Shown: positions 11,694 through 30,720, numbered from the stretch's first letter. The stretch is 64,000 nucleotides of DNA from Patescibacteria group bacterium (GCA_038065075.1 JBBTRQ010000011.1:5924-69923); one strand, 5' to 3'. Program-made: numbers and translations. Notes: generated by a model from the letters alone, not told the origin.

Positions 11694-13238
11694 TTATTCG
11701 ACGCCGTATTTAGTATCCGTACCCTTATCAGACACTTTCAAAAAGAGATGGCGGTTAGCACTTACTCGAAACCTCAAATACAGTAGATGGGTCGATGTAC
11801 TGGGATCCGGCCCGCTGATCTCTAAAGTGGGGTGTTCAGCCTGAAGTATTTTTATGACTTCGTCGACTTTCTGACCAACGTCCGACGAGTTGTACAAACG
11901 TGAGTGGACACGCATGGCAAGTTCATTCATCCAGATATCCTCTTCAGAACGAAGCGTCTTTTTCTTTGGCTCAACGACATCCACTGCCTTCTGAAGGACA
12001 AGTATATGTTTTGATGCATCAAAACTATCTGGCGCATTCAGATAATCCTGAGCAGAATCGAGGAACGTTCCACTGAAGTGGAGCACATCTTCATATTCGG
12101 CGATATAAATGTTGTACTCTTCAAGCTTTGCCTTCTGCTCTTTGAGTGACAACTCTTTATCGATTCCTAGATCATCACAGAATGGAGCGAGAATCTCATC
12201 TTTAAATGATTTTTCGTGGCCGGATTTCGGCGCGTCAAAGATGACCCTAGTCTCCTTATCAAAGCTTCGCCACAATTTCCAGAATTGGTATGTCATGTTA
12301 TTTCCACCAGTGCTCACCATAAATACACGACGGCTCCAATCGACCCTATTATCGGTCTTCAGTTTGCCGAAAATAATCTCGTCTGACATTCCTTCAATGA
12401 AAAGTGTAACAGGCGCATAAAGGAACGCGCGCTTGTTTGCATCGAGAAACGGTCCAAGTTTCTCGATCAGAACATCGGCTCCGTTTTCGCTTGCTTGAAT
12501 GATATGTGTATCACGTAGGCGATCCTTCAGATTGAAGTACGAGTAGGTATAGGTATCGGGGTTTCCGACACGAATCATTTCGGGATTATGCGTTGCAAAC
12601 ACGAACTGTTTCCCATAACCTATTTCAGCGTGTATCTCCTCAAGAAGGAATGAAATCATGTCTGGATGGAGATAAAGTTCTGGTTCGTCCACTGCAAGAA
12701 AAAGACACTTTGGGTGGTAAACGTAGGTTAGAAGTAACGACAAACGCCGTAGTCCATCACTTTCGTGTTGAGGTGAATACGATGGGACTTCTTCGTCATT
12801 TTCACGCAGAAACCCCATTACATTTTTCACGCCTCGCTTTTGAAGATTTGGGTAACGACCAAGGTACTTTTGGAGGGCATCACGAATCTTAATTCTGATT
12901 TCTGGATAATCCTCGAGGTGCTGATAGAACGTCTGTCCCGTAACCTCTTCGCTGTCGAGATCCGACTGGCTTGCCGATTTGTCCAAAATTGACTGGCTCT
13001 CCTGATACAGATCGTGTTGTGGCGACGCGGTGATGTACTGTGCAAAATAACCATCACGATTTCGACCGCTATTTGTAATTACTTGCTTCGCCTGTTTGGT
13101 CACGGTTCTAAGAACCAAACTTTTCCCAGAACCATTCGGTCCAAAAAAATAATTGATAGCCTTAAACGTCAGTTTTTTGTCTTGGTGCAAACCATGTGGT
13201 AGGCCGCTCACCTGCGCCTCTTTGAGAAGAAGTTCCAT
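11694..13238 (-). CDS. OLD-family / PARIS(AriAB)-like ABC-type ATPase fused to a Toprim-like nuclease domain (anti-phage defence nuclease)
   Basis: 514 aa. Walker A FGPNGSGKS, Walker B/D-loop LFLAVDEPELYLHPD, H-loop FVFATHNPEMI (AAA_21/ABC-like ATPase). The C-terminal FIEGMSDEIIFGKL...VFMVSTGG...VIFDAP resembles the Toprim E-G...D motifs of OLD nucleases and DUF4435. Confidence 0.6.
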   Translation of the reverse strand: MELLLKEAQVSGLPHGLHQDKKLTFKAINYFFGPNGSGKSLVLRTVTKQAKQVITNSGRNRDGYFAQYITASPQHDLYQESQSILDKSASQSDLDSEEVTGQTFYQHLEDYPEIRIKIRDALQKYLGRYPNLQKRGVKNVMGFLRENDEEVPSYSPQHESDGLRRLSLLLTYVYHPKCLFLAVDEPELYLHPDMISFLLEEIHAEIGYGKQFVFATHNPEMIRVGNPDTYTYSYFNLKDRLRDTHIIQASENGADVLIEKLGPFLDANKRAFLYAPVTLFIEGMSDEIIFGKLKTDNRVDWSRRVFMVSTGGNNMTYQFWKLWRSFDKETRVIFDAPKSGHEKSFKDEILAPFCDDLGIDKELSLKEQKAKLEEYNIYIAEYEDVLHFSGTFLDSAQDYLNAPDSFDASKHILVLQKAVDVVEPKKKTLRSEEDIWMNELAMRVHSRLYNSSDVGQKVDEVIKILQAEHPTLEISGPDPSTSTHLLYLRFRVSANRHLFLKVSDKGTDTKYGVE

Positions 13239-13286
13239 ATCTGTAGTGCAGACTATATCATGCCGTTACAATTCAGAGCTGTAAAC

Positions 13287-13889: not shown

Positions 13890-14005
13890 ATGTGGACAAC
13901 TATACGCTGTGGATAACTTTCAGTCAAGAACATCCTTGTATTGTTCTACGATTTGTTCTACTCTCGGAATATGCTCGCCGAAACAGTTGATGGTTCTCGT
14001 CCCGC
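13890..14005. promoter_or_regulatory. Divergent control region between the repressor gene and the + strand module; candidate operator direct repeat TTGTTCTAC x2
   Basis: tattGTTCTACgattTGTTCTACtc at ~13935-13960. CACGTG...CGTGTCACATG quasi-palindrome at ~14023-14048. Confidence 0.3.
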
Positions 14006-14419
14006 ATGCACAGCCGATTAATGGCCACGTGCTTAATTACGTGTCACATGAACGTTGGGACACTCATGCTGGCGCATAACACCAATTCGTCCCATGCATA
14101 TATGGTTCAACCCTATAACGGCCATCATCCCTACACGCAGGTGTGTGTCGGAGGATGGCAATACGCCCTGACCGGCGTGTATTACTGCGGCTACCTCGGA
14201 GCTGACGGACGGCTTCAACCGCTCTACATCGGCCGCGCAATTGGCGACGGCGGAATCCGTGGCCGTCTGCTCGATCATCTCCGAGATGATGTGTGGCCTG
14301 GTGTGACACATTTCGGATTCGCGGTTTGTGCCACTGCGCAAGAAGCTATCACTCATGAAGCGGCGGAGATTCGGCGCTTTCAGCCACGTTTTAACACACA
14401 AGGAAAATCCTATGGCTAA
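14006..14419 (+). CDS. Small GIY-YIG nuclease-domain protein (start uncertain; possibly M33 at 14102)
   Basis: GVYYCGYLGADGRLQPLYIGRAIGDGGIRGRLLDHL...THEAAEIRRFQPRFN fits GIY-(x10)-YIG...R...H...E...N. Its stop overlaps the next start (ATGGCTAA). Confidence 0.5.
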   Translation: MHSRLMATCLITCHMNVGTLMLAHNTNSSHAYMVQPYNGHHPYTQVCVGGWQYALTGVYYCGYLGADGRLQPLYIGRAIGDGGIRGRLLDHLRDDVWPGVTHFGFAVCATAQEAITHEAAEIRRFQPRFNTQGKSYG

Positions 14420-14636
14420 CCAACATGTTCTGAAACGCGAAGACGGCTGGGGTGTACGCCGCGAAAAAGCTTCCCGCGACACCGTCATCGTCCCCACGCA
14501 GAAGGCAGCAGAAAAGATCGCAAAGGAAATCGCCACGAATCAGGGAGGAGATGTCTTTATTCATCGGCAGACGGGCAGCCAATGGCGCGAACGCAACACC
14601 TATGGAAAAATCGACCACAATCCCCCGAGGGGATGA
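14412..14636 (+). CDS. DUF2188-family small protein
   Basis: MANQHVLKREDGWGVRREKASRDTVIVPTQKAAEKIAKEIATNQGGDVFIHRQTGSQWRERNTYGKIDHNPPRG matches the DUF2188 pattern (GW.V.....A......K.eAi..A...A...g.e..IH...G.i....syg.DP.PP.G). AGGAAA Shine-Dalgarno 5 nt upstream of the ATG. Confidence 0.6.
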   Translation: MANQHVLKREDGWGVRREKASRDTVIVPTQKAAEKIAKEIATNQGGDVFIHRQTGSQWRERNTYGKIDHNPPRG

Positions 14637-14994
14637 TGCTTCGACAGGCGTTCAGATTCAGGAATCTGAGACGGAGGTGGCGGTGATCATCACGAACCTC
14701 CACCTCCACACGACCGTGCTGCGCAAGCCCAAGACCTTCGCGGAAGGCGTCCGACGTTCCCTTACAAGCGGGAAGGCCGGCCGCGTTCACCAGTCGGACG
14801 GGTTCGAAATCGCTCCAGACGGACAAACGTTCAAGTTCACGATTCCAATCGAAGGGATGGACAGGGTGGTCGCCGATGCCGCCGCCAAAGGCCAACGCGT
14901 CCGCTTCTACATTCCGAGGGATGGCCTGCCTCTCTACATAGGCAAGGATCTTATCCAGCGCACCGAGGCTCTGAAACGCCAGGACAAGGTGTGA
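14602..14994 (+). CDS. Hypothetical protein (start uncertain; alternative GTG at ~14683 with a GGAGG 6 nt upstream)
   Basis: ORF in the same orientation as its neighbours, ...VIITNLHLHTTVLRKPKTFAEGVRRSLTSGKAGRVHQSDGFEIAPDGQTFKFTIPIEGMDRVVADAAAKGQRVRFYIPRDGLPLYIGKDLIQRTEALKRQDKV. No recognisable domain. Confidence 0.3.
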   Translation: MEKSTTIPRGDDASTGVQIQESETEVAVIITNLHLHTTVLRKPKTFAEGVRRSLTSGKAGRVHQSDGFEIAPDGQTFKFTIPIEGMDRVVADAAAKGQRVRFYIPRDGLPLYIGKDLIQRTEALKRQDKV

Positions 14995-15050
14995 TGTAAT
15001 ACCAGTAGATCGTTCCAACTTCACGTCTACAACGTGGTGTATCACTAATT

Positions 15051-15180
15051 CCGGCTCCGGCCGGTAGGAGGCGCGGTAACGCGCCGAAGAGGCATCGCCT
15101 CGGTCGTGCCCGCTCTGTAGAGCTAGTTCGAAAGTCTATTTGGATTTTTCGTGCTCGCTCTACGGAGCGGGCACTTTTTG
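15051..15180 (+). promoter_or_regulatory. Cluster of four consecutive GC hairpins ending in an 18-bp stem / 33-nt loop hairpin plus T-run (terminator, structured leader, ncRNA or pac/ori candidate)
   Basis: CCGGC-tccg-GCCGG (15051-64). GCGCG-gtaa-CGCGC (15071-84). GAGG-catcg-CCTC. GTGCCCGCTCTGTAGAGC (15106-23) ... GCTCTACGGAGCGGGCAC (15157-74) with one G.U pair, then TTTTT. Confidence 0.45.
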
Positions 15181-15214
15181 TTCCCTCACTAACTTATTCA
15201 TCACATTCAGTCAT

Positions 15215-16597
15215 ATGGCCAAACACAACCTTACTCAACACGACGGCACCAAAATTGCCGTTCAGTACGTCCCGCTCGCTTCCCTGAAGCTCGCGGAATA
15301 CAACCCGCGTCGCCATGACGCGGAGCAAGCCGCCAAGCTCAAGGACGGCATCAAAAAGTTCGGGCTGGTCGACCCGATCATCGTGAACGCGGCTCCCGAA
15401 CGCGAGAACATCATCATCGGTGGTCACTTCCGAGCGGAGATCGCAAAGGAGCTTGGCATGACCGAGGTTCCGGTCGTCTTCGTGAACATACCCGACATTG
15501 GGCGCGAGAAGGAATTGAACCTTCGCCTTAATCGCAACACGGGCGAATTCGACCTGGAACTCCTGGCCGAGTTCGACGAGTCCCTACTCACAGACATCGG
15601 CTTCACAACGAACGAGCTCGACCAAATCTTCGAGGCCGAGGAGACGCCCGAGATGTTCGACCTCAATAAGGAGCTGGCCAAACTCGATATCAAACAGATC
15701 GAGATCCAGAAGGGCGACGTATGGCAACTCGGCGAGAGTCAGCTTATGTGCGGGGATTCAACAGTTGAGGTGGACATGTTCACACTCATGGGTGGCGAAC
15801 GAGCGGACATGTGCTTCACCGATCCTCCATACATCCTCGACTATCTCCATGGGAAGAGAAAGGAGGGTCAAGCTGTCACCGGCTTCGGGGCGAAGCGCAA
15901 TCGCCGCTATCTTGAGACCGATGTTCTGCCGCCCGACTTTACGGAAAAATGGATGGGCAGCGTGGTCAAGGTGGCCGCGTCCAACTTCTCGATCATCGTG
16001 TACGAGAATTGGAAGAATATCCGTACGATCTGGGGCGAGATGGAGAAGTATTGGAAGGTAAAAAACATGATCGTTTGGCATCTCGAGAACCGCCACCAAG
16101 GGTTCTCATCCAAGTACAAATTTTTCAACAAGCACGATATCGCCGTGGTCGGCGCGGGCGGTGACGTGCCGTATAACTTCGATCCCGAAGAGGCACCGCT
16201 CCAGGAGGAATACGAGACAGCGCTTTATGCCATCTCCGGAAAGCCACAATGGGAGCCGTACCAAAAGGGCAAGAAAAACTGTCCGACGGACTTTATCGAG
16301 TTCCGTGCGTCCGATGAGAAGCATTCCGGCCAGGGTGTCATCTTTGGCACCAAGCCGACGGAAATTCTCATCCCGTACATCAAGGTGCTCACGAAACGCA
16401 ATGATATCATCCTTGAACCCTTCGGTGGATCCGGTTCGACGTTGATCGCCGCGACGAAGATGAGTCGCCGATGCCGAATCATGGAAAAGTCGCCGGTGTA
16501 CGCGGAAGTGATTCGCAAGCGTTGGGAAAAACTCACAGGGCAGAAAGCAGTCCGTATTTCGTGCGGCATCTATGGAAAATCCAACCCTACATCCTAA
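15215..16597 (+). CDS. ParB-like nuclease N-terminal domain fused to a DNA (N6-adenine/N4-cytosine) methyltransferase
   Basis: First ATG gives MAKHNLTQHDGTKIAVQYVPLASLKLAEYNPRRHD... (ParB-N/ParB-like nuclease). Motif IV FTDPPY precedes motif I ILEPFGGSGSTLIAA (beta-class amino-MTase order). The track ORF 15140 has an N-terminal extension across the hairpin and is rejected. Confidence 0.8.
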   Translation: MAKHNLTQHDGTKIAVQYVPLASLKLAEYNPRRHDAEQAAKLKDGIKKFGLVDPIIVNAAPERENIIIGGHFRAEIAKELGMTEVPVVFVNIPDIGREKELNLRLNRNTGEFDLELLAEFDESLLTDIGFTTNELDQIFEAEETPEMFDLNKELAKLDIKQIEIQKGDVWQLGESQLMCGDSTVEVDMFTLMGGERADMCFTDPPYILDYLHGKRKEGQAVTGFGAKRNRRYLETDVLPPDFTEKWMGSVVKVAASNFSIIVYENWKNIRTIWGEMEKYWKVKNMIVWHLENRHQGFSSKYKFFNKHDIAVVGAGGDVPYNFDPEEAPLQEEYETALYAISGKPQWEPYQKGKKNCPTDFIEFRASDEKHSGQGVIFGTKPTEILIPYIKVLTKRNDIILEPFGGSGSTLIAATKMSRRCRIMEKSPVYAEVIRKRWEKLTGQKAVRISCGIYGKSNPTS

Positions 16598-17030
16598 CGC
16601 TCGGCGCACACAGGCAAAGCGGGACGCGGAGAAAGTTCGGCTTGTCGAGGCATTTAGGAAAACGCCCATCGTTCAACTCGCTTGCCAGTCGGCCGGTGTC
16701 CAGAGTCGATCGAGCTATTACCGGTGGCGCAAGGAGGATCCCGAATTCGCCAAGGCCTGTGACGACGCGATTGGCGAGGGTGTTGAACTTGTCTCGGATC
16801 TTGCAGAATCCAAACTTATCCAAGCCATCAAGGAGCAGAACTACTCCGCGATTAGTTTCTGGCTGCGCCATCGGCACCCCGCCTACGCTGACAAACTTAA
16901 CATTCAAGCCAAGGTAGAAGTCGATAAGCCATTAACTTCGGAGCAAGAGGCGGTGATCCGTCGCGCCATCGAGCTTGCCAGGCTCCCACCACCTTATGAC
17001 CAATCCAAACCTTCTACCCCTGCCGAATGA
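16572..17030 (+). CDS. Putative phage terminase small subunit (HTH DNA-binding)
   Basis: 152 aa. N-terminal HTH with SRSSYYRWRKEDPEFAKACDDA, typical of TerS. It lies immediately upstream of and overlaps the TerL gene. Confidence 0.55.
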   Translation: MENPTLHPNARRTQAKRDAEKVRLVEAFRKTPIVQLACQSAGVQSRSSYYRWRKEDPEFAKACDDAIGEGVELVSDLAESKLIQAIKEQNYSAISFWLRHRHPAYADKLNIQAKVEVDKPLTSEQEAVIRRAIELARLPPPYDQSKPSTPAE

Positions 17031-18519
17031 GGACCCTGAGACGGTGAGCGACCTCGTGCACCTCATGATTCGCGACCAGCGGATCCGTACCGAGGTGACG
17101 CGCGGAAGCCATATGTGGTTCTTTCTGACCTACCTCGCGGATTATGTCCGCTATCCCTTCGCGCCGTTCCATCGCGAGATGTTCGCCCTATCTGAGGACG
17201 ACACCCTGCCAATGTTGGTACTCATGGCGTTCCGCGGGTCGGCCAAGTCTACAATCTTCACTCTCTCGTATCCGATTTGGGCGATCCTCGGACAACAGAA
17301 AAAGAAGTTCATCGTCATCCTCGGCCAGACGCAGCAACAGGCACGACAGTATCTCGCCAACCTCAAACGTGAGCTGGAGCGCAACGATCTGCTCCGGCGA
17401 GATCTCGGTCCATTCGAGGAGCGCGACGAGGAATGGAGCGCTGGAAGCATCGTCATTCCTAAATACGATGCCCGCATCACCGCCATTTCCTGCGAGCAAG
17501 GCATCCGTGGACTTCGTCACGGTGCATACCGCCCCGACCTCATCATCTGCGACGACCTGGAGAACCTCGACAGCGTGCGGACGCGCGATGGCCGCCAAAA
17601 ACTCTACCAATGGCTCATGGGCGAGGTCATTCCTGCTGGGGACGTGAACACCCGTATCGTAATCGTCGGCAACTGCCTGCACGATGACGGAATCATGATG
17701 CGGCTCCAGCGAGAGATCACGGCTGGCGCAAGGTTGGGCGTGTTCCGATCGTTCCCACTTCTTGATGACGAAGGTATTTGTTTGTGGCCAGGCAAGTTCC
17801 CAGATCCCGAATTGGTCGAGTCATTTAAGCGGTCGGTGGTGGACGAGATCACCTGGCAACGGGAGTACTTATTAAGAATCATCGCTGGGGTCGATACTGT
17901 GATCCATCGCGACTGGATTCAGTATTACGACGAGGCGGAGATGGCAGCGTGCGGAGAGAAGTTCCGCTACGTGGGGATCGGCATCGATTTGGCGATCTCC
18001 GACAAGGATACCGCCGACTACACCGCCATGGTGACGGCACACGTGTACGGACGAATCAAAAAACTTCGAATCTTCATCCAACCGCATCCGACAAATGAGC
18101 GGCTTGGGTTTCCGGATACCTACGAGCGAGTAAAGGCCATGGCAAATCTCCACACAGACAAAGCAAAGCTCAAAATTTTCATCGAAGATGTAGGCTATCA
18201 AGGCGCACTAATTCAGATGCTCGAAAAAGACGGGTACCCGGCCGAGGGCGTGAAACTTCACGGTGCGGATAAGCGATCTCGTCTTGCGCTTACGAGTCAT
18301 CTGATCAAAAACGGGGTAATTCGCTTTCCTCGGATTGGCGCAGAGGAATTGATCGAGCAACTGACCGGCTTCGGCTCGGAACGCCACGATGACCTCGCGG
18401 ATGCATTCTCGAGTTTGATCATCAAAATCAAAGAGCATGACAAACCCGCGCCGTGCATCGGGTTCATCTCGTTCGGATGGGACGGATCGGTGCGAGATAC
18501 GCGGATTGAACTGGACTAA
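16996..18519 (+). CDS. Phage terminase large subunit (ATPase + nuclease)
   Basis: Walker A-like MAFRGSAKST, Walker B LIICDDLEN, and C-terminal RNaseH-like nuclease region (IGIDLAISDKDTADYTAMV...). The track ORF starts at TTG 16975; the first ATG is at 16996. Confidence 0.85.
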   Translation: MTNPNLLPLPNEDPETVSDLVHLMIRDQRIRTEVTRGSHMWFFLTYLADYVRYPFAPFHREMFALSEDDTLPMLVLMAFRGSAKSTIFTLSYPIWAILGQQKKKFIVILGQTQQQARQYLANLKRELERNDLLRRDLGPFEERDEEWSAGSIVIPKYDARITAISCEQGIRGLRHGAYRPDLIICDDLENLDSVRTRDGRQKLYQWLMGEVIPAGDVNTRIVIVGNCLHDDGIMMRLQREITAGARLGVFRSFPLLDDEGICLWPGKFPDPELVESFKRSVVDEITWQREYLLRIIAGVDTVIHRDWIQYYDEAEMAACGEKFRYVGIGIDLAISDKDTADYTAMVTAHVYGRIKKLRIFIQPHPTNERLGFPDTYERVKAMANLHTDKAKLKIFIEDVGYQGALIQMLEKDGYPAEGVKLHGADKRSRLALTSHLIKNGVIRFPRIGAEELIEQLTGFGSERHDDLADAFSSLIIKIKEHDKPAPCIGFISFGWDGSVRDTRIELD

Positions 18520-19508
18520 AATTCGTCTAGATTCAATCCTGGAACCTGATAAAGTTGTTCAATCGCTTTACGCTCCTCGTCTGACAAAAGTTGTACCCCG
18601 CGATTATAAAGAAATTTTACGAATTCATTTACATCCTGGTCATCATGAACCCAATGGATCTGATTATTTTGGATTGCGGCTTGAAGCATCGATCGCAATT
18701 CGTCATCGGTAAATTCTGAAAACTTGCTCAATACAGCAACTGATTTATGTGTAGTCTCAAAATTTCTAGTGTTCGCGAAACCGTCAATAGCGAGGCTTCT
18801 GGCAAGCTCATCGGCCAGTTGAATATTAGGGTACTTATCTCTAAAGAACTGCGATAGGTCAGGATAAAGATATACTTGGGAATTTTTCTTGATTTTCCAT
18901 TCATCTTTCAGGCAATCAAGTATTTCGCCATCGTGTAAAGGTGAGCGGTAATCAGAATCTTTTGAAATGAGATACAAGTCTTCTTTTTGTGGGACGTTGG
19001 CTAAAAGCGAAAGCCAGCAAATCGCGTCTCCGTATGAATTATTTTTTCCTGGCGGGTGTCCGAGGTCCATTCTTCTGACAGCCTTATCGATAATTGTTGC
19101 TGTTTCCAGAACAATTGCCTTAGAGAATATTTCTTCCAAGGTTTTATCAGCTTTTAAACCATCCTGAGCTGCCTCCTCTCTGATGTTCTGTACCGCCTTC
19201 GAGATGAGTTTAGAGAATTCTCTCGCTGCCACGCTCAAAGCAGTGTGGTTTGCGTCGAGCTGAACCAATTGAGGAAATTTCGAGACGGTGTTCCTCAATT
19301 GGAATTCCCGAATGGCATCGGCGATTTTCGTCTCTCTGTTTCGTCGAAATTCAGACCTCGCATGGTCAGGTAAATACAAAACGATACCGCGTTGATCAAG
19401 TGCTGTGACGAGTTTTTTTAATGCCTCAAGATCGTCATCGGTATAATGATAAAAAGAGAGGTATATGTTTGTATCAATGAAGACGTGTAATGCCACAAGA
19501 AATTTCAC
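18516..19508 (-). CDS. PIN-like domain protein (DUF4935-like), last gene of the type I R-M operon
   Basis: N-terminal VFIDTNIYLSFYHYTDDDLEALKKL (PIN-type acidic motif). GTG start at 19508 directly abuts the hsdS stop codon (19509-19511). 330 aa. Confidence 0.55.
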   Translation of the reverse strand: MKFLVALHVFIDTNIYLSFYHYTDDDLEALKKLVTALDQRGIVLYLPDHARSEFRRNRETKIADAIREFQLRNTVSKFPQLVQLDANHTALSVAAREFSKLISKAVQNIREEAAQDGLKADKTLEEIFSKAIVLETATIIDKAVRRMDLGHPPGKNNSYGDAICWLSLLANVPQKEDLYLISKDSDYRSPLHDGEILDCLKDEWKIKKNSQVYLYPDLSQFFRDKYPNIQLADELARSLAIDGFANTRNFETTHKSVAVLSKFSEFTDDELRSMLQAAIQNNQIHWVHDDQDVNEFVKFLYNRGVQLLSDEERKAIEQLYQVPGLNLDEF

Positions 19509-20693
19509 CTATAAAAGCTGTGCGGTCAAAGCTGAAAATGCTTCGTCGATCAATTGTCCACGATGCAGTTGTTTTCCTCGGATTTTTGCCGAATTTTCTA
19601 CAAGCTCAACAAATTCAACCTGCTTATCTTTTGGAGGCACCAAAATATCCAAACCCGTCAGTGCATCGGTGTTAAGACTCTGAACAGTCGCTCCGGTTTT
19701 GATCAGTGTTAACAGATGTCTTTCTAAACCACGCAATTGCCAATACAGAAAAATCGGATTGATCTCTGCCGAAGGGATCAGAGCTTTGATATCTTGGTTA
19801 ATCGCCACTGGTCTAGCTGTGATCGCGATCGGTACCGTATGCTTCAAGATTCCACTGCGAGTAACCACCAATAATGAATTGGGAGGTATCAGATTTGTAG
19901 CTGATTCCGCAATTGCTTCTTGAGTTATGTGATCCTCAGTATCCTCAATAAACTCATCCCCCATGTCCTTCGGGGAGACCCATGGAATCACTCCGTTCCA
20001 AAATTTTCCCATTTGTTTCGAAGGTGTACCCCCACCCTTAACGGTTACCACGTCGCTCAATTTTTTTGTCAAAAAGTTTTGGTCAATTGAGTTACCAAAC
20101 ATTTGGTCAAACAATGCAGGAGCGAAGTCAGACAAAATTTTGTATGCGCTATCACGTTTTGTTTTCAATTCCAGTACCTGATCCAAAGTCGACACAATTT
20201 GCTTCTGTGTCTTCAAAGGAGGAACGGGAATTAACAACTTTCCGTAACGCCGTGTCTCTAGATTTCTAATTCCTGACGTCTGTCTCTGAAGGGAGTTGGT
20301 AACGCCTTTCATATACAGATTCTGGAGGCAGTGCCAGAGGAATCGCGGATCAATCATCCCTGCGTCTTTTACTCGAATCCGAGCAGTAAAGTTACTATAG
20401 GTATACCCAGGTTTGTCCAATTGAAAGAGCGCAACTCGACCCACAGGTTGTTTGGGCCCACCACCAGATTTTTCTAAAATAATATCACCGGGCTTTAGCT
20501 CCCTTGTAGAAAACTGTCGATCTTCAACGAGATGCTCTGCCACATCATCAAAATCCAAATGACCACCCGCTTTAAAATTTGTATTACGGATAATTCTCGC
20601 CTGACGCATCGTTCCTGATTTACCAATCCAAAGACCACCCGTTATGTCACATAGTTCATCCAGATTTTTTTCGATATACGGTGAACCATGCAT
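19509..20693 (-). CDS. hsdS: Type I restriction-modification specificity subunit HsdS
   Basis: 394 aa with two target-recognition domains and central/C-terminal conserved helices. ATG at 20693 lies 1 nt after the hsdM stop. Confidence 0.85.
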   Translation of the reverse strand: MHGSPYIEKNLDELCDITGGLWIGKSGTMRQARIIRNTNFKAGGHLDFDDVAEHLVEDRQFSTRELKPGDIILEKSGGGPKQPVGRVALFQLDKPGYTYSNFTARIRVKDAGMIDPRFLWHCLQNLYMKGVTNSLQRQTSGIRNLETRRYGKLLIPVPPLKTQKQIVSTLDQVLELKTKRDSAYKILSDFAPALFDQMFGNSIDQNFLTKKLSDVVTVKGGGTPSKQMGKFWNGVIPWVSPKDMGDEFIEDTEDHITQEAIAESATNLIPPNSLLVVTRSGILKHTVPIAITARPVAINQDIKALIPSAEINPIFLYWQLRGLERHLLTLIKTGATVQSLNTDALTGLDILVPPKDKQVEFVELVENSAKIRGKQLHRGQLIDEAFSALTAQLL

Positions 20694-20694
20694 A

Positions 20695-22170
20695 TCAAAC
20701 CTGTTTTAGGAGATTCTCGACTTCCGATACGATTTCCTTCTCAAGCTTAACGACCTCTCGCAAAATTTCCTTTGGATCACGGTGATCGATGGCTGTTGTT
20801 TCTATGGTTCGATAGCGACCAATAGCCAAACTTAAATCAGAATCCTTTTTAATGGTTTCTGCACTGATCAGGAAACTATTTACACTGGATTTGCGTTCCG
20901 GCCATGCCGCAAGCACATCCGGAATATTGTTTTTATTGATGGGTTGTCGTCGATCATCTAAGGTGTAACCATCGGCTTTGAGGTCGTAAAACCAAACGTC
21001 CTGTGTCGCACCACCCTTCTTGAAAATCAAAACACCCGTTGCGACACCGGAGTATGGCTTGAACACTCCTGGTGGCAAATTAATCACAGCCTGAAGTTCG
21101 CAAGTGTCGAGCAAAAGTTCGCGAATTTTTCTGGCAGCACGGTTTGTTGCAAAAAGCACACCATTCGGAACAATCACAGCTGCCCGACCGCCGCCCGTAA
21201 GGTGGTCAATAAACCACTTACAAAACAAGAGCTCTGTGCTAGTGGTGAGCAAGTTGATGTCTGCAAGGATGCTTTCTTGCTGGATTGATCCAGCGAAAGG
21301 AGGATTCGCAAGAATCACATCGTAGCGGTCGCTATAGTGACGAGGATCAGTGAGCGGGTTATAAAAAAGGATTCGTGCCTTCTCAAGCTGGTGCAGGTAA
21401 AGGTTCATGATTGCGACTTTCACCATGTTCGCGTCGTTGTCGAAGCCGGTGAACGCCTGCTCCTCGAGGAATTTCCATTGGGCAGTTGATAGCTCATCAC
21501 CTGTGTTTTGACCCTTGGTCTGCGAGCCTTTTGAGGTATGCGTACGCTTGATGTGATCGAAAGCGGCAATCAAAAATCCACCCGTACCACAAGCTGGATC
21601 ACAGATGCGTTCACCCGGCTGAGGGGCTACCATTTCCACCATCATCGCGATGATGTGTCGCGCTGTGCGGAACTGACCGGCGTTACCCTGCATTGAAAGG
21701 TTGCTGAGCAGGTACTCATATGCGTCTCCCTTGATATCGATTCCTTGAAGCGGCTTGAGTTCCATCGAATGAATCGTCTGGATGACGGCACGGAGCGTTG
21801 GGCGATCGTAGATTTTTAGGGTCGCGCGTGCGAACAGAAGTTTTCCTGTCTCGGATAGGTTCGGAAGCTCGTGGATATTCTCAATCGCGGCGCGGGCGGC
21901 ATCAAAAAGGGCGTCACCGGTTAGGGTGACGAAATTGCCCCAGCCGTACTTCGACCACTCGCCTGAAAAAATCGGCTTGTAGTTCTTGTCGAGACGAGCA
22001 AGTTGCTCGTCTCGTTCGGAAAGGATTCGCAAGAACAACAGATAAGAAATCTGCTCGATCGCATCAATCGGATTATTGACCCCTCCTGAGTAAAGTGAGT
22101 CCATCAGCTGGTCGATCTTTGACTTGAGATCGGAGGAAGTAAAAAGCTCTTGGGAACGCATTGATACCAT
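20695..22170 (-). CDS. hsdM: Type I R-M N6-adenine DNA methyltransferase HsdM
   Basis: NPPFAGS motif IV, motif I DPACGTGGFLIAA, HsdM N-terminal domain. Confidence 0.9.
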   Translation of the reverse strand: MVSMRSQELFTSSDLKSKIDQLMDSLYSGGVNNPIDAIEQISYLLFLRILSERDEQLARLDKNYKPIFSGEWSKYGWGNFVTLTGDALFDAARAAIENIHELPNLSETGKLLFARATLKIYDRPTLRAVIQTIHSMELKPLQGIDIKGDAYEYLLSNLSMQGNAGQFRTARHIIAMMVEMVAPQPGERICDPACGTGGFLIAAFDHIKRTHTSKGSQTKGQNTGDELSTAQWKFLEEQAFTGFDNDANMVKVAIMNLYLHQLEKARILFYNPLTDPRHYSDRYDVILANPPFAGSIQQESILADINLLTTSTELLFCKWFIDHLTGGGRAAVIVPNGVLFATNRAARKIRELLLDTCELQAVINLPPGVFKPYSGVATGVLIFKKGGATQDVWFYDLKADGYTLDDRRQPINKNNIPDVLAAWPERKSSVNSFLISAETIKKDSDLSLAIGRYRTIETTAIDHRDPKEILREVVKLEKEIVSEVENLLKQV

Positions 22171-22176
22171 AGAATT

Positions 22177-24579
22177 TTAAAGCTCAGCCAGATCCGCTTG
22201 GCGAACGATTGGGGTAAGACGCAGGGCATCGAATACTTCATCACGTTCGTTGAATGCGAGCAGACCTTCAAGTCCGCCGAGGGCGTTGAATTGACTGGTG
22301 TTAAAAATGGTCATGTCCTTTGCGAAGAAGCGTCGGCGAGCATCCTTATCTTCCACCAACATCTTCACAATAGCGTCCACCCAGCGCTGATCGTTAAACC
22401 GCAGATTGAACTGCGATGCGATAGTTTCGACAGTATCCTCGACAATCCGCGCCTTCGTTGGGATCGGCTTTTTCCCAAGGGGACCGTAGACGAAGGTCGG
22501 CACCGGGGCTGGGATACCGTAAGCCTGTACAAGTTTGCCAGGGGTGTAGAACATTTTCGGTCGGTTGAAAAACCGTTCCCCCATAATGGTTTCAATAGCG
22601 TCATCGTCCTCGTCATCAACTGCGTTTTTGAATTCTCCATCCTTTTTGTATAGATCCTTTATGTCTTTTTCGTATGAGCCGCGGAATGTCATAACATCGA
22701 CCTTTTCGCCGTCGGGTCCGACGATTTTAATCTCGGTGGTTTGGACAATATCGGTGCCAGTCCAGACAGGAATCTCTGGCTTGAGATGGCCTCCAGCCGC
22801 CGGTTCAGCTACAGTTACACCTTCTCCAGTAGGCAGAGCCTCGGACTTGGAGCCTTTCTTTCCTTTTGCAGGTTTTACCTCTCGCGGTACCACCAGCGGA
22901 ACGGTATAGTCATATTTTTCTTGGAAATACTCGGCTACGCCGCAAAAATCCAAAATCAGGAAATTTTCCTTCTTGTATGCCGTGTTGCCAACTTTAAACG
23001 TATGAAGACGCGTCCCGCGTCCTTTGATCTGGATGTACTCAGTCGGGGAAAAGATCGGGCGAGCAAGGACGATATTGAGAATGTCCGTGCAGTTATACCC
23101 AGTCGAAAGCATGTCGACGGAAACAGCAACGCGCTCATTGCGTTTCCCATCACGGAAATCTTTTGCGATTGCCGCTGCATCTTGGATGCGGGAAGTGATG
23201 GTGAGTGCAACCTCGGGCTGGATGGCGTTCAGCATCTTTGTCAGAGTCGTTGCATGGGTTTGGTTCACAGCAAAAATAATGGTTCTGCCGATTTGACCAT
23301 CGGGAGCACGAAGCGCATTTTTGAAAAACTGCTCGCAGATAATTTTGTTACGCTCGGGAGTGAAGATTTTCCGCTCAAGATCGCGAATCTTGTAGCTCTC
23401 TTCCTGCTCGTTGACCGTGACAGTCCATCCGCCTTCCTCGAGCGCCTTGGTAGTGATTTCAGAACGGATATCCCAAATTTTAGGCAGGCAAAGGAATGGA
23501 CCCTCGGGATCCTTTACCGCATCGACGATGTCATATCGGAACGTCGGCAACCCAGGCTTACAGCCGAAATAGTGATACGTGTCCCGTAGTTGGCGAGCTT
23601 CAAGAGCTTTGGGATTCTCCTCCTCAAGTTGAGTGAGATCGACATTTTTTAAATATGCCTTCGGGGTTGCCGTTAGACCAACACGTGTGGCCTGGAAATA
23701 CTGAAGGACTTCACGCGCGTCACCGTAGATAGAACGATGCGCTTCATCGTTAACCACAAGGTCAAAGTGATACGGTGTAAATGCCTCACGGTAACGCCTA
23801 TCAACTAAAAGCGACTGAATGGTGGCGATCACAACGCTCGAAGCCATGAGCTCAGCAGGCTTGTGACGTGCAGTTTTAAAAATGACCGGCTTGTAATCGC
23901 GCAGGATAAATTCGAATGTCTCCAGCGTTTGCTTGGCAAGCTCAATTCGGTCAACGACAAAAAGCACGCGCTCGGCGTTACGTGTCATGAGGAAACGCCG
24001 GATCATCGCAGCACACATAAGTGTTTTCCCAGTACCCGTCGCCATTTCCAAAAGGAATTTCCTTCGGCCGGATTCATCGAACTGTTTGGCAACTTCGTCG
24101 AGTGCACGAATTTGGTAGCCGCGAACCTTAAGTGCCGGATCGATACCAGCAAGCGAATTTGGAGTGAGTCTTTCAGTAAGCAACGGTCTTGGTGGTTGAA
24201 GGTTTTTTAATTTCAACCGTTCAAGATCGGCTCGGGATGGAAGTGATTCGATGCGATATGCATCTTCCTGATTCTTGCGCGTGAAATTCCAAAAATAATG
24301 AACCGTCCCATTTGAGAGGATGACAAATGGCGCTTTTAAATTATCGGCATACCCACGCGCCTGATCCTTTGCATCGTATGGATCAAGATCTTCGCGCTTC
24401 GCTTCAAGGATGCAAAGCGGAAAGCCGCGATCATCTTTCAGAATGTAGTCAGAGCGCCCGGTCGTTGAGGAAACTTCCAATGTGACCTGTTGCGTATCGA
24501 GCAGATTCCAGCCGCTCCCTTCAAGTGCCTTATCGATTAAGATGCGGGAAAAAGCTTCGGGTTGTCCTTTTGCGACCAT
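22177..24579 (-). CDS. hsdR: Type I restriction endonuclease subunit HsdR
   Basis: 800 aa. N-terminal PD-(D/E)xK nuclease (DYILKDDRGFPLCILEAKRE), helicase motif I EMATGTGKT, motif II VVNDEAHR, motif VI QIKGRGTR. Confidence 0.9.
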   Translation of the reverse strand: MVAKGQPEAFSRILIDKALEGSGWNLLDTQQVTLEVSSTTGRSDYILKDDRGFPLCILEAKREDLDPYDAKDQARGYADNLKAPFVILSNGTVHYFWNFTRKNQEDAYRIESLPSRADLERLKLKNLQPPRPLLTERLTPNSLAGIDPALKVRGYQIRALDEVAKQFDESGRRKFLLEMATGTGKTLMCAAMIRRFLMTRNAERVLFVVDRIELAKQTLETFEFILRDYKPVIFKTARHKPAELMASSVVIATIQSLLVDRRYREAFTPYHFDLVVNDEAHRSIYGDAREVLQYFQATRVGLTATPKAYLKNVDLTQLEEENPKALEARQLRDTYHYFGCKPGLPTFRYDIVDAVKDPEGPFLCLPKIWDIRSEITTKALEEGGWTVTVNEQEESYKIRDLERKIFTPERNKIICEQFFKNALRAPDGQIGRTIIFAVNQTHATTLTKMLNAIQPEVALTITSRIQDAAAIAKDFRDGKRNERVAVSVDMLSTGYNCTDILNIVLARPIFSPTEYIQIKGRGTRLHTFKVGNTAYKKENFLILDFCGVAEYFQEKYDYTVPLVVPREVKPAKGKKGSKSEALPTGEGVTVAEPAAGGHLKPEIPVWTGTDIVQTTEIKIVGPDGEKVDVMTFRGSYEKDIKDLYKKDGEFKNAVDDEDDDAIETIMGERFFNRPKMFYTPGKLVQAYGIPAPVPTFVYGPLGKKPIPTKARIVEDTVETIASQFNLRFNDQRWVDAIVKMLVEDKDARRRFFAKDMTIFNTSQFNALGGLEGLLAFNERDEVFDALRLTPIVRQADLAEL

Positions 24580-24668
24580 ATGTCCGAATTATGCCTGAAA
24601 AGAGCCTTATCTGCAATGAGTTTTTGTCCCTTTTGTTACCTACAAGTAGGGCTAGGCACCCAGGACAG

Positions 24669-24694
24669 ATGTGGCATTAATGTCCATGCCACAT
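24669..24694. promoter_or_regulatory. Perfect 9-bp inverted repeat ATGTGGCAT-n8-ATGCCACAT, 12 nt upstream of the recombinase start (candidate operator / recombinase-binding site)
   Basis: Read directly from the sequence. It lies in the divergent region between hsdR (-) and the recombinase (+). Confidence 0.4.
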
Positions 24695-24705
24695 AACGGC
24701 CATTT

Positions 24706-26037
24706 ATGAACAATCCAGCCCAACAAGCAGTACCAGTGCCACAGCCGATCCGCTACTGCCTTTACTCACGCAAGAGCACCGAGCAAGACGAGCAACAATC
24801 CCTCTCGATTGAATCCCAAGTGAAAGAAATGCTCGCGGCGGCGGAGCGGGACGGGCTTTTGGTAACGGAGATCCGGCGCGAGAGTCACTCGGCTAAGGCG
24901 TCTGGCCAGCGACCCGAGTTTAACCGGCTCATCGATGATATACGCCTTCAACGGTTTGACGGCATCCTTGCCTGGGCGCCAGACCGCTTGAGCCGTAACG
25001 CGGGAGACCTGGGAACCATCGTGGACTTAATGGATCAAGGTGTTATCCGCGAAATTCGCACCAATGGATCCCGGTTCACGAATTCGCCGAGCGATAAGTT
25101 CATGCTCATGATGCTCTGCAGCCAGGCCAAGCTAGAAAACGATAACAAGAGCATCAACATCAAGCGCGGGCTCAAGGCGAAAGTCGAAATGGGCTATCGG
25201 CCTAACATGGCTCCGATGGGGTACTTGCATGACAAGAATGCTGACAAGGGTACGAAGCGGATTTACATCGATCCCGAACGCGCGCCGGGCATCCGTGAGA
25301 TGTTTGAAAAAGTCGGATATCGATTCTGGTCAGGGCGACAGGTTAAACGATGGCTTGATAACGATGCAATGTTCAGGTCACGAACGGGTAGAAAGGTTGC
25401 GTTGAGTAGTATCTACATGATGCTTTCAAATCCATTTTACACCGGCCGATACGAATTCCCGATGAAGAGCGGGAAGTGGTACAAGGGCAAGCATGACGCG
25501 ATCATCTCACAAGAGCTATTCGATCGGGTGCAGGAGAACCTCAGTGTGATCCCCAAAGGTACACATGGATCAAAGGAGTTCTCGTTCACCAGATTGTTCT
25601 CCTGTGGCGCGTGCGGAGCCGGCATTACGGCCGAGGAGAAGGTGAAGCGGCTCAAGGACGGTACGGTCAAACGGTATGTGTACTATCATTGCACAAAACA
25701 GGTCGATAGGAATTGCCGTGAGTCGTTCCTGCGTGAGGAGTCTCTCATCGAGCAGCTGCTGAAGATCGTCGATAAGCTTAGCATCGATGAACTTGGGATG
25801 GCCGAGATCGTAAAAGCAGAGATGGAAAAATTTCAACGGCTCCTTGTGGTCGTGTCCAAGCTGGATTCGAACCAGCAAAACATCATGGTTCTTCCGAAAC
25901 TGGACGTACGAGCCTGCGCGAAACTGATCCTTCAGGACGGATCAAAAGAAGACAAGCGGAAACTGCTCGAGCAACTCAAGAGCCGCATCATCCTGAAGGG
26001 GGGCAAGCTGAGTATAGAAAAGAAGAGAAAAACCTAA
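24706..26037 (+). CDS. Large serine recombinase (resolvase-like catalytic domain + recombinase domain + Zn-ribbon)
   Basis: N-terminal YCLYSRKSTEQDEQQSLSIESQ (catalytic Ser). Recombinase domain. C-terminal CGACGAGI...YYHCTK zinc ribbon and coiled-coil. 443 aa. Confidence 0.9.
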   Translation: MNNPAQQAVPVPQPIRYCLYSRKSTEQDEQQSLSIESQVKEMLAAAERDGLLVTEIRRESHSAKASGQRPEFNRLIDDIRLQRFDGILAWAPDRLSRNAGDLGTIVDLMDQGVIREIRTNGSRFTNSPSDKFMLMMLCSQAKLENDNKSINIKRGLKAKVEMGYRPNMAPMGYLHDKNADKGTKRIYIDPERAPGIREMFEKVGYRFWSGRQVKRWLDNDAMFRSRTGRKVALSSIYMMLSNPFYTGRYEFPMKSGKWYKGKHDAIISQELFDRVQENLSVIPKGTHGSKEFSFTRLFSCGACGAGITAEEKVKRLKDGTVKRYVYYHCTKQVDRNCRESFLREESLIEQLLKIVDKLSIDELGMAEIVKAEMEKFQRLLVVVSKLDSNQQNIMVLPKLDVRACAKLILQDGSKEDKRKLLEQLKSRIILKGGKLSIEKKRKT

Positions 26038-26051
26038 GGGTCGCCAAATCG

Positions 26052-26086
26052 AAAACCCGCATTCCATGAGGAGTACGGGTTTTCTT
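26052..26086 (+). terminator. Rho-independent terminator after the recombinase gene; its loop contains the right copy of the 11-bp repeat
   Basis: AAAACCCG-cATTCCATGAGGagta-CGGGTTTT-CTT. Confidence 0.6.
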
Positions 26087-26531
26087 GGTCACCCCCTGTT
26101 CCGGTCGCCAGGAACAGGTCGTGATGGTTCTGGAGCAAGAGATTCGAACCGAATCTCGACCATCTGTCACAGATCGTCGGTCTCCTGCAGGCAGCCTTGC
26201 TGGACCTCGACCAGGCGCTCGCGCCGTTTCGGATCCGCATCGCGCGTGTCGAGGCGCGTCGGGACCACGTCCCGCTGTGGAACTTCAGCGGTCAGTTGAC
26301 CCAGCTGGTCGTCGAGGGCTTCCACAACGGCCACTACTTCCACACCTTCCCCGGCGGGAGGATCGACGACAACCTCGCAGAGATGGAGATGGCGGAGTTC
26401 AACCGCCTGGTCATCCACTGCGAGGCCGTCAGGTAGCCTTCCGTCCGCTCAACGCGCTCTAGCCACCCGGCTGGAGCTTTTCATTTTGGCTAAATTTAGC
26501 CCATAGATGCCCACTCAGTGGGTTTCACCGA

Positions 26532-26594: not shown

Positions 26595-28286
26595 ATGCTT
26601 AAGAAACTACTTATCTTGGCCGTTGCGGTTGCCATAGGTGTGAGTCCTCTGCTTCCCCGTGTCTTTGCTGACTCGGGATCTTGGACAAACACCGTTGCCA
26701 GCGCGGCTTGGGACTACGATTTTTACCGCGTTGAGCGCCTGGCGCTTGATGAGGTTTCGGGTCCTTATGACTTTAACGACGCCGTCTTCGTAACCTCCAC
26801 GTCAGGATTGGAGACCGTTGACATGACCATCTTCCAGGATGGAGAAGCCTTCGAGATTGAAGGTGTCGACGAGCGCGTCAGCTCTGCCTTCTGGCACACC
26901 GCGCAGGACGGCCGTTTCATCTACCTCGTCCCGTCTGACGACGGTGAGATTTGGGGCACGGTTTACGAGTATGACTCCACGACCGGAACCTCCACCGTGC
27001 TCACGCAGATTGAACAGACACCAGACGATCTTGATTTCATGACGTTCGCCACCGATGGCGACCGCGTCTACTTTGGTACCATCCACTCGGATGAGGATAC
27101 CGGAAAGATCGAGTCCGAACTCTCTGTCCACGATTACGACTCCACCTATGGCCGCGATGACTTTTCTTATACGCTCACCGCGCCTTGGCAGGAGATCGTC
27201 GATGTCCAAGATGGACTTGCACTCGTGAAGTTCCAGTTCTCCGGTGGCTTTGAACAGCTCTGGCTTATCGACCAGACGGCCCGTTCTATGGAAGCCATTC
27301 CAGACACCTGGACGGAAGATCCGGGCGAGATTGTCGGCGCGCATTTTGTGAGCGATGGATCAGTCCGCTACTTCCGCAACTTCCGACTCTTTAGCTACAA
27401 CCCAGAAACCGACACAACCCCGACAGACGCCGGTGGCGCGTATCTCTCCTGGTTTGATGAGGTTGGCGATGCCGTGCAGATTGTCGGCGACCGCATGGCC
27501 TATATCGACGATGAGGACGGCCTCTACGTGTCTAGCGTCGACGGCGTGAGCAAGTTCGGTGTTGCAAAAAATGGTTTGTTCAACCTCGACGAGGATGCGA
27601 TCTACTTCCAAAATCTCGACGGCGAGTATGTGGGTTATCATTTCTCGACCCGAGAATGGGAGACACTCAGCTTCCTCGTGACCGATACGTATGAGGATAT
27701 CCGTGTCGGGATAGACACAGACGACAACGTCTGGTACCAGAACCTCACGACCGGACACCTCTTGAACGTCGGTTTCGGTAATGAGCCCGTGGTCCTCTCC
27801 GACCGTGAACATGCCTATTGGCAGGGCGCGGACGGCAACATCTATGAGGTGACGTTCTCGCCTTTGCTCGATCTCGCTCGCGAGGATGTGGAAGCGTTTA
27901 GCTCCTACACCTCCGACGGGATCTACCTCGTGGCGGACGGCAACATGTGGCTCATCCCTGACCCGACCGTCTACTTCACTTGGTTTGATTCATGGGATGA
28001 TACCCTTGAGGTCAGCCAGGCGACGATCAATGTCTATCTTGAGACGTACGAGTACAAGGGCGATCTCAAACTCGCCGCGGGAACGCGCGTGAAGTCTGAT
28101 GTGTCCAACAAGGTCTATGTCGTGGGCTCTGACGAGAAGCTTCACTGGATCACCACAGAGACGGTCGCCGATGAGGTCTACGGCTCCGATTGGAACCAAG
28201 GGATCATCGAAGTGACCAGCACCTACCTCTGGAAATACGCCACCGGTTCGAGCATCGCTTCGACCGACGACGTCCGAAGTATCTAA
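26595..28286 (+). CDS. Secreted hypothetical protein (paralog B of the 9583..11238 product)
   Basis: Signal peptide MLKKLLILAVAVAIGVSPLLPRVFA. Shares C-terminal motifs with paralog A. Confidence 0.6.
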   Translation: MLKKLLILAVAVAIGVSPLLPRVFADSGSWTNTVASAAWDYDFYRVERLALDEVSGPYDFNDAVFVTSTSGLETVDMTIFQDGEAFEIEGVDERVSSAFWHTAQDGRFIYLVPSDDGEIWGTVYEYDSTTGTSTVLTQIEQTPDDLDFMTFATDGDRVYFGTIHSDEDTGKIESELSVHDYDSTYGRDDFSYTLTAPWQEIVDVQDGLALVKFQFSGGFEQLWLIDQTARSMEAIPDTWTEDPGEIVGAHFVSDGSVRYFRNFRLFSYNPETDTTPTDAGGAYLSWFDEVGDAVQIVGDRMAYIDDEDGLYVSSVDGVSKFGVAKNGLFNLDEDAIYFQNLDGEYVGYHFSTREWETLSFLVTDTYEDIRVGIDTDDNVWYQNLTTGHLLNVGFGNEPVVLSDREHAYWQGADGNIYEVTFSPLLDLAREDVEAFSSYTSDGIYLVADGNMWLIPDPTVYFTWFDSWDDTLEVSQATINVYLETYEYKGDLKLAAGTRVKSDVSNKVYVVGSDEKLHWITTETVADEVYGSDWNQGIIEVTSTYLWKYATGSSIASTDDVRSI

Positions 28287-30643: not shown

Positions 30644-30720
30644 AGGGGCGTAGCTCAGTTGGTTAGAGCTCCGAGCTTATACCTCTGTGGTCGATGGTTC
30701 GACTCCATCCGCCCCTACCA
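30644..30720 (+). tRNA. tRNA with anticodon UAU (putative tRNA-Ile reading AUA); CCA encoded
   Basis: AGGGGCG-TA-GCTC-AGTTGGTTA-GAGC-T-CCGAG-CTTATAC-CTCTG-TGGTC-GATGG-TTCGACT-CCATC-CGCCCCT-A-CCA. There is one C.U mismatch in the anticodon stem, so identity should be confirmed with tRNAscan-SE. Confidence 0.6.

Follow-up and report, generated by a model that had tools for sequence, protein, structure and literature searches.

The type I restriction-modification (R-M) operon considered here lies on the minus strand of a 64,000-nucleotide stretch of DNA from a Patescibacteria group bacterium (GCA_038065075.1, JBBTRQ010000011.1:5924-69923), hereafter the window, in which four open reading frames (ORFs) running in the same direction (22177-24579, 20695-22170, 19509-20693 and 18516-19508) correspond to hsdR, hsdM, hsdS and a gene encoding a predicted nuclease with a PIN domain. 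This four-gene set had been proposed in an earlier reading made from the sequence alone (the sequence-only reading), and both its composition and the assignment of the fourth gene to the PIN-like DUF4935 family are borne out by the ORFs and by profile searches against Pfam (E<=0.01), PADLOC (E<=0.01) and NCBIfam (E<=0.001). The further proposal of a specific hsdS-PIN or PrrC-like partnership does not survive comparison with related loci. The arrangement is instead ordinary defence cargo on a mobile R-M operon and not a new system, and the PIN gene is best regarded as a candidate for single-protein defence that is autonomous and has no antitoxin partner. On balance, the evidence leans somewhat towards a reading in which this gene is an interchangeable passenger of the operon and its product a self-contained sensor-effector defence protein. 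The value of the locus lies in this passenger, a representative of the large PIN_12/DUF4935 family, for which no function is known.

The position 3' of hsdS behaves as a variable cargo slot in this lineage of R-M operons, and the PIN gene is one of its occupants. Close relatives of the operon retain the hsdR-hsdM-hsdS order, with some adjoining a serine recombinase or lying on a prophage, and each of the five related operons has a cargo set of its own, which makes such relatives useful for finding cargo slots. In L096 (HsdM 92% identical) hsdM is followed by a gene for a 272-aa protein without a Pfam match, no Methylase_S gene being called, and then by a cold-shock gene. In L097 (HsdM 87%) hsdS is followed by genes for proteins of 223 aa and 273 aa, an Abi_C protein of 255 aa and a protein of 78 aa; in the ERZ1426829 contig (HsdM 70%) by those for a SMODS protein of 294 aa and a protein of 185 aa; and in the ERZ27296333 contig (HsdM 67%) by those for a 223-aa protein, a PDDEXK_1 protein and a HipA_C protein. 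The slot of L099 (HsdM 65%) holds a 1358-aa orphan which overlaps the hsdS stop. DNA alignment of the window with L096 covers 25685 to 20767 at 79% identity, starting within the recombinase gene and reaching as far as hsdM ends, which indicates a shared recombinase-hsdR-hsdM arrangement; with L097 it covers hsdR, hsdM and a portion from the middle of hsdS. This homology ends at hsdM or at or inside hsdS, and none was found with either L096 or L097 over the PIN gene. The G+C content at third codon positions (GC3) of the PIN gene (0.41) and hsdS (0.40) likewise differs from that of hsdM (0.54) and hsdR (0.52), while the flanking host genes stand at about 0.68. The slot is thus recognized because the relatives carry other genes there, the DNA homology stops before the PIN gene and the GC3 values agree. 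The 223-aa protein, encoded directly after hsdS both in L097 (10600-11271) and in the ERZ27296333 contig (gene 5478-6149) and absent from the window, yielded no Pfam match in a scan confined to the L097 copy, and it may be a recurrent accessory of this R-M lineage.

A comparable lack of a fixed partner is seen across the PIN family. The indexed homologues of the PIN protein number about 140, are typically ~330 aa in length and show 35-46% identity to it. Eighty GTDB loci belonging to different species were compared, spanning many phyla (Planctomycetota, candidate phyla radiation (CPR) bacteria, Proteobacteria, Bacteroidota, Chloroflexota, Cyanobacteria and others), and 8 kb of their flanks were searched with profiles built by iteration, for which HsdM, HsdS, HsdR, the methylases of types IIG and III, and Res helicases served as seeds. 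No R-M gene was detected within this distance at 64 of the 80 loci. An R-M component was present at 16 or more, with seven directly adjacent, a count that is a lower bound since some flanks end early. The linked systems are of type IIG (L002, L063), type III (L007, L010, L045, L061) and type I (L026, L030, L033, L074), with the PIN gene situated variously upstream of the R-M genes, downstream of them or, in L030, between hsdM and hsdS. The last of these loci, from a Planctomycetia metagenome-assembled genome (L030:869-7560), additionally contains a gene combining Schlafen AlbA_2, HATPase_c_4 and helix-turn-helix domains, which overlaps the PIN_12 gene by 25 nt.

The nearest large neighbours of the homologues are equally heterogeneous, with 120 Pfam families among 138 proteins. 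Even the commonest of these families occurs no more than five times, reflecting synteny among Chamaesiphon genomes within the 80 loci, and none of the larger neighbours is conserved across the set. The immediate neighbours of some homologues are type III restriction endonucleases, type IIG/PglX enzymes, GajA, MADS and PDC-S46, and metabolic genes also occur nearby, such as those for GGT, GATase, MFS transporters and Mur ligase. A search for antitoxin-like partners among small ORFs up to 200 nt upstream and up to 150 nt downstream of the PIN gene recovered no cluster of more than two members across the 80 loci. The closest PIN homologue (46% identity) is solitary, with no R-M gene nearby, and DUF4935 genes were earlier described as usually monocistronic (Matelska et al. 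2017, PMC5499597). The adjacency of hsdS and the PIN gene is thus not conserved, the gene being commonly found alone, which is the outcome that the sequence-only reading had itself set against its proposal beforehand.

These phyletic and contextual patterns bear directly on whether HsdRMS might hold the PIN nuclease inactive until a phage anti-restriction protein disables the enzyme and releases it, which would make the pairing functional and specific. The precedent for such a guard is PrrC of the EcoprrI type I R-M locus, likewise a nuclease gene transcribed with type I hsd genes and conceptually a second line behind restriction. The tight co-directional packing in the window, with a 12-nt gap behind hsdS, is in keeping with this possibility, as are the R-M components found near ~20% of the homologue loci, including the seven that are directly adjacent, and the embedding of the PIN gene between hsdM and hsdS in L030. 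However, it fits poorly with the absence of a detectable R-M gene from the majority of loci, with the association of the remainder with R-M systems of types I, IIG and III, which are unrelated to one another and lie to either side of the PIN gene, with the solitary state of the closest homologue and with the other cargo held by the closest relatives of this operon. Moreover, PrrC, an ABC-ATPase fused to a HEPN-like tRNase, is almost always embedded in type I R-M loci and silenced by the R-M enzyme, whereas the PIN_12 gene encodes a PIN domain with no ATPase, stands after hsdS and is solitary in ~80% of the genomes examined. Neither the obligate type I linkage nor the combination of an ABC-ATPase N-terminal domain with a HEPN-like C-terminal domain that characterizes PrrC is therefore seen here: no ATPase or HEPN model in Pfam, PADLOC or NCBIfam matched the PIN protein, and no other domain that might dock it to HsdRMS was found. 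Given these observations, we consider a guard of this kind quite improbable.

The affinities of the PIN protein itself are clear. It matches the PIN_12 profile (PF16289, formerly DUF4935) over its entire extent (68.3 bits against a cut-off of 32; model positions 1-172 of 172) and also the PIN_8 profile (PF18476; 45.5 bits against a cut-off of 26.1), which places an N-terminal PIN nuclease domain with a long helical insert at approximately residues 5-183 (18948..19484, minus strand). The acidic residues, which the sequence-only reading had singled out for checking, hold up, in that 32 homologues of 32-46% identity all retain D8, E49, D157, D180 and D182, the metal-binding set; judged from this conservation, the acidic active site of the PIN domain is intact and the protein is predicted to be a nuclease, an activity that in the PIN superfamily depends on Mg2+/Mn2+. 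An AlphaFold2 (AF2) model of the full protein (mean predicted local distance difference test score (pLDDT) of 89) shows strands alternating with helices, along with the long helical insert and, as a distinct unit, the six-helix C-terminal domain. Comparison of this model with the PDB using Foldseek retrieves PIN proteins, namely 1w8i (probability 0.97) and the VapC structures 5k8j and 6a7v, all with weak E-values. The protein belongs to PHROG family 9788, a family without an assigned function; no NCBIfam model matched it, and neither PADLOC nor NCBIfam contained a full-length defence model that did so. DUF4935/PF16289 is not mentioned in the supplements of Vassallo 2022 or Payne 2024. The suggestion of an Abi-type defence role remains reasonable, while that of an AbiJ-like identity found no counterpart, as Pfam, PADLOC and NCBIfam listed neither Abi_C (an Abi_C/HEPN-type domain) nor a family of the AbiJ type for it at the thresholds used; a gene for an Abi_C protein occupies the equivalent slot in L097.

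The family as a whole is widespread, with more than 1,300 clusters at 50% identity, patchily distributed across distant phyla and rare in IMG/VR, where 10 relatives were found. Two Legionellales homologues of 639-660 aa (L032:8001-9920 and L039:7932-9914) are extended at the C-terminus by pentapeptide repeats; DNA mimicry is known for proteins with such repeats, Qnr and MfpA among them. The protein encoded in the window conforms to the DUF4935 family as described by Matelska et al. (2017, PMC5499597), whose members are of about 330-350 aa with an N-terminal PIN-like domain and 4-5 acidic residues, and are usually monocistronic. That study left the function of the family open and found no homologues of its C-terminus; the present case differs in that the C-terminus can be linked to PDC-S34 and DARNA and in that the gene is co-operonic with an R-M system. 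DUF4935 was also observed to cluster with the VapC group, whose characterized members are RNases (same study). With the VapC toxins of type II VapBC toxin-antitoxin systems the PIN_12 protein shares a predicted PIN (Rossmann-like alpha/beta/alpha) fold of that group and the conserved acidic quartet, but it is ~2.5 times larger, has the long helical insert and an extra C-terminal domain, and unlike them has no adjacent antitoxin gene that is conserved in the 80 loci.

The C-terminal six-helix domain, a putative sensor (approximately residues 222-316; 18549..18833, minus strand), was delineated through PADLOC and PDB profile matches and is marked in the family by two conserved motifs, S-x-x-F246-x-x-T-H250 and N277-N278-Q279-I-H281-W282. 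Residues ~227-302 match the C-terminus of the PADLOC model PDC-S34 (E 1e-10; model positions 297-372 of 384), and the same region of the model is matched by all 32 of the family members searched (best 2e-15). At the level of sequence, the C-termini of PIN_12 and PDC-S34 are clearly homologous. The PDC designation derives from a "guilt-by-embedding" screen for genes lying within loci of the BREX, DISARM and type I R-M systems (Payne et al., bioRxiv 10.1101/2024.01.29.577857), and PDC-S34 thus resembles the PIN_12 protein further in being a single-gene defence candidate tied to R-M operons. It differs in its overall architecture, as the N-terminal ~300 model positions are not matched by the PIN family.

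A second, more distant relationship connects the same region to PD-T7-3. The PADLOC model of this defence protein matches the PIN protein with an E-value of 1.2e-3 (model positions 343-409 of 432) and three of the 32 family members (best 2.7e-4). A profile of the PIN_12 C-terminal domain built from 25 sequences retrieves 9wwz_A and 9wxf_A ("Dandelion") among PDB sequences with E-values of 0.004-0.008, and a deeper profile of 83 sequences ranks 9wwz/9wxf first (0.011-0.016). Only such domain-level profiles reach Dandelion, a protein of 460 aa and 12 chains (9wxf): the full-length PIN_12 family profile gave no matches among PDB sequences, and the window sequence on its own aligns in the same register at a non-significant E-value of 0.4-0.8. 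PD-T7-3 has been described as DARNA, in which an N-terminal HEPN tRNase is joined to a C-terminal helical domain termed Pds5-like; it is dodecameric and is switched on by single-stranded DNA (ssDNA) that the phage single-stranded-DNA-binding protein presents; the ssDNA bases are contacted by F368, D372, N402, Q403, Y405, W406 and N408, and the F368A and W406A mutants are inactive (preprint 10.64898/2026.02.22.705581). The printed Dandelion segment F373...D377...N407-Q408-C-Y410-W411-R-N413 reproduces this contact set with a shift of exactly +5, and from this match we infer that Dandelion is probably DARNA or a very close homologue.

The register between the PIN family and DARNA, as taken from the HMMER alignments to PDB 9wxf and 9wwz, which are weak-scoring, places F246 opposite F368, H250 opposite D372, N278 opposite N402, Q279 opposite Q403, Y/H281 opposite Y405 and W282 opposite W406. 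In this register five of the seven DARNA base-contact residues are kept (F246, N278, Q279, Y/H281 and W282), and the aligned residues are the most conserved positions of the PIN family C-terminus. An AF2 model of the domain alone (pLDDT 90) shows a weak Foldseek resemblance to helical repeats of the armadillo/HEAT type, which is compatible with the Pds5-like description of the DARNA domain and does not constitute proof of kinship. Together these comparisons suggest that the C-terminal modules of PIN_12 and DARNA are likely to be homologous, and it is possible that ssDNA sensing is common to both.

The likeness between the PIN_12 protein and DARNA (9wxf, 9wwz) extends to their general plan, a single protein in which a nuclease at the N-terminus is followed by an alpha-helical C-terminal domain, but the effector is a PIN domain and not a HEPN domain (the N-terminal HEPN RNase domain of DARNA, with its Rx4H signature, has no profile match in the PIN protein), and the C-terminal domain spans ~100 aa as opposed to ~300 aa. 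We tentatively propose, as an idea still short of probable, that PIN_12/DUF4935 might be an effector-swapped relative of DARNA, in which the helical module would read ssDNA bases through an F...NQxYW signature and be coupled to PIN in place of HEPN. The module, occurring in at least three architectures (PIN_12, PDC-S34 and DARNA), would then represent a portable ssDNA infection-sensor domain, here borne as cargo by a mobile type I R-M operon of a CPR bacterium. Relatives of DARNA with other effectors are not mentioned in its description (preprint 10.64898/2026.02.22.705581). The link yields a testable prediction, namely that ssDNA would activate the PIN nuclease and that F246A or W282A mutants would lose this activity, and suggests that ssDNA sensing could be a modular trait across unrelated nuclease effectors.

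Searches with the domain alone returned only 11 candidates and one fragment from an index of 5.8 billion proteins. An exhaustive HMMER run using the C-terminal profile yielded 1,343 matches, and among the best 150 of these no architectures beyond PIN_12 or fragments were seen. The profile also matches twice in some PIN family members, and a weak second match is present in Dandelion (9wxf residues 267-298), a pattern which suggests that the module was derived from an internal helical repeat.

In the reading that we favour, of an interchangeable passenger encoding a self-contained sensor-effector, the PIN gene would occupy the slot 3' of hsdS and be transcribed from the R-M promoter, and its product would act in the manner of an abortive-infection protein. 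The C-terminal domain would recognize an infection cue, most likely exposed ssDNA as in DARNA/PD-T7-3, and this recognition would license the PIN domain to cleave RNA, so that the infection is aborted; the protein would thereby furnish a second defence layer once restriction fails. Here we infer the defence role, the sensing of ssDNA, the RNA target and the independence from HsdRMS.

The choice of RNA as the target can be questioned, since the C-terminal domain could be pictured as a substrate-binding module that delivers single-stranded or branched phage DNA, such as replication or recombination intermediates, to a FEN-like PIN site, and not as an allosteric sensor that unleashes an RNase. 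Nucleases acting on DNA flaps and on ssDNA do belong to the PIN-like superfamily (Matelska et al. 2017, PMC5499597), the C-terminal motif aligns with DARNA residues that contact ssDNA bases, and the pentapeptide-repeat extension of the Legionellales homologues hints at a DNA-related activity because of the DNA mimicry known for Qnr and MfpA. The clustering of the family with the VapC group, with its characterized RNases, points the other way, and although the two readings are not separable by sequence alone, we regard a direct DNA nuclease as unlikely.

A role outside defence, as a housekeeping or stress RNase or as a selfish toxin that stabilizes the island and came to lie behind hsdS by chance, has a minor yet appreciable probability. 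It would agree with the metabolic genes flanking most homologues, with the few relatives in IMG/VR and with the lack of a full-length model in the defence databases. It is less easily reconciled with the patchy distribution across distant phyla and the atypically low GC of the gene here, with the recurrence of the family beside R-M, Gabija and MADS genes, with the presence of its C-terminal domain both in a candidate defence protein of PADLOC and in one whose defence role has been validated by experiment, and with the absence of a conserved antitoxin-like neighbour.

Several points weigh against the sensor-effector reading and the proposed kinship with DARNA. The PIN_12 family as a whole is experimentally uncharacterized, no matched genomic background entered the estimate of its enrichment near defence genes, and about 80% of the homologues sit among ordinary genes, which allows a non-defence role. 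The similarity to DARNA is marginal (E about 0.001-0.02 overall, ~0.01 for the profiles and 0.4-0.8 for the single sequence), and the alignment takes in only ~55 residues of a DARNA domain of 300 residues. At two of the seven contacts the residues differ, as D372 is replaced by H250 and the position corresponding to N408 (residue 284) is variable in PIN_12. Furthermore, 9wxf and 9wwz are absent from the top 50 Foldseek matches of the C-terminal model, although the library may not hold them. Finally, the spacing of the genes is the sole basis for inferring co-transcription of the PIN gene with hsdRMS.

That spacing depends on the start of the PIN gene, for which two in-frame GTG codons are available. 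The sequence-only reading had taken the GTG at 19508, which does directly abut the hsdS stop (TAG, 19511-19509), and from it a 330-aa product. The actual start is most likely the second GTG, at 19496, giving a product of 326 aa (18516..19496, minus strand), and the GTG at 19508 is probably not used. This is indicated by the Shine-Dalgarno-like hexamer AGGTGA (19505..19510, minus strand), read from the sequence, which precedes the GTG at 19496 with an 8-nt spacer, no such motif standing before the GTG at 19508; by the identical public protein of 326 aa, which gene callers start at 19496 in four independent assemblies of the locus; and by the N-termini of the homologues, typically M-N-L-F-I-D-T-N, which agree with the shorter form. 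The same locus is also present in assembly GCA_964359885.1. The PIN gene is accordingly separated from hsdS by 12 nt, with its Shine-Dalgarno-like motif overlapping the hsdS stop, and is a separate gene and not a fused one, contrary to the earlier description. At this distance it is almost certainly co-transcribed with hsdRMS, and translational coupling of hsdS and the PIN gene is plausible. At its other end, the tetranucleotide CTAA at 18516-18519 combines the PIN stop (TAG, 18518-18516) with the stop of the convergent terL gene (TAA, 18517-18519), and as a result of this overlap neither intergenic space nor a terminator separates the R-M block from the genes for phage packaging.

The three hsd genes form a complete, ordinary type I R-M operon. 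The hsdR gene (22177..24579, minus strand; 800 aa) encodes an EcoAI-like restriction subunit recognized by Pfam (ResIII 3.8e-38, HSDR_N_2 and Helicase_C), PADLOC (REase_I 6e-67) and, with a partial score, the EcoAI/FtnUII family of NCBIfam, and combines a nuclease N-terminal domain with a superfamily 2 helicase/translocase motor, as expected of type I enzymes. It is followed by hsdM (20695..22170, minus strand; 491 aa), the N6-adenine methyltransferase subunit (Pfam N6_Mtase 2.4e-56 and HsdM_N; PADLOC MTase_I 2.7e-139), and hsdS (19509..20693, minus strand; 394 aa), the specificity subunit, in which Methylase_S (Pfam, 3.3e-25) matches in two stretches corresponding to two target-recognition regions. 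The union of such a methyltransferase and a specificity subunit with two target-recognition domains with hsdR in a single operon is likewise typical of type I systems. As read from the sequence, the TAA stop of hsdR is separated by 6 nt from the ATG of hsdM, and the TGA stop of hsdM by 1 nt from the ATG of hsdS, the latter junction being exactly as first described. Scans for consensus promoters and terminators inside the operon gave nothing informative, with sites fewer than in shuffled sequence. In another assembly of the same locus (L082, ERZ2470813) hsdR is split into 737 + 63 aa and hsdS broken into 182 + 67 aa, with the PIN gene intact. This version is 99.74% identical to the window with 13 indels over 14.9 kb and stems from an assembly at 7x coverage, and the breaks are most likely low-coverage assembly noise, although they may instead reflect decay of the R-M genes while the PIN gene is retained.

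The R-M/PIN block resides on a prophage-like island of ~15 kb (window 11300-26500) that also comprises an OLD-type nuclease, a LexA/S24 repressor, a ParB-methylase fusion, the small and large terminase subunits and a serine recombinase. The island's mobility gene, that of the large serine recombinase (24736..26037, plus strand; Pfam Resolvase, Recombinase and Zn_ribbon_recom), is divergent from hsdR, and the large terminase gene (17044..18519, plus strand) is identified by PHROG 38, terminase large subunit (4e-76), and NCBIfam termin_lrg_T7. No capsid, portal or tail genes were recognized on the island with Pfam, PHROG or PADLOC, and the island may be either a prophage in decay or an element resembling a satellite. 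It bears another defence-type gene, that of the OLD-family ABC-ATPase/TOPRIM nuclease (11694..13238, minus strand; Pfam AAA_21 and OLD-like_TOPRIM; PADLOC AriA 7e-19 and Old 5e-13), a single protein whose gene adjoins the repressor and has a low GC content of 0.445.

At the boundaries of the island, a search for repeats detected none of the att type. The island is flanked by two genes, 9583-11238 (551 aa) and 26595-28286 (563 aa), whose products align over their full length at 25% identity (E 1e-39). As these are paralogous, the island sits between tandem paralogues; both have N-terminal hydrophobic leader-like segments in the alignment and no family match, and are putative secreted proteins. 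An Rfam scan of the window detected three tRNAs only, among them a tRNA-Ile with the anticodon TAT (30644-30720), an uncommon bacterial means of decoding AUA.

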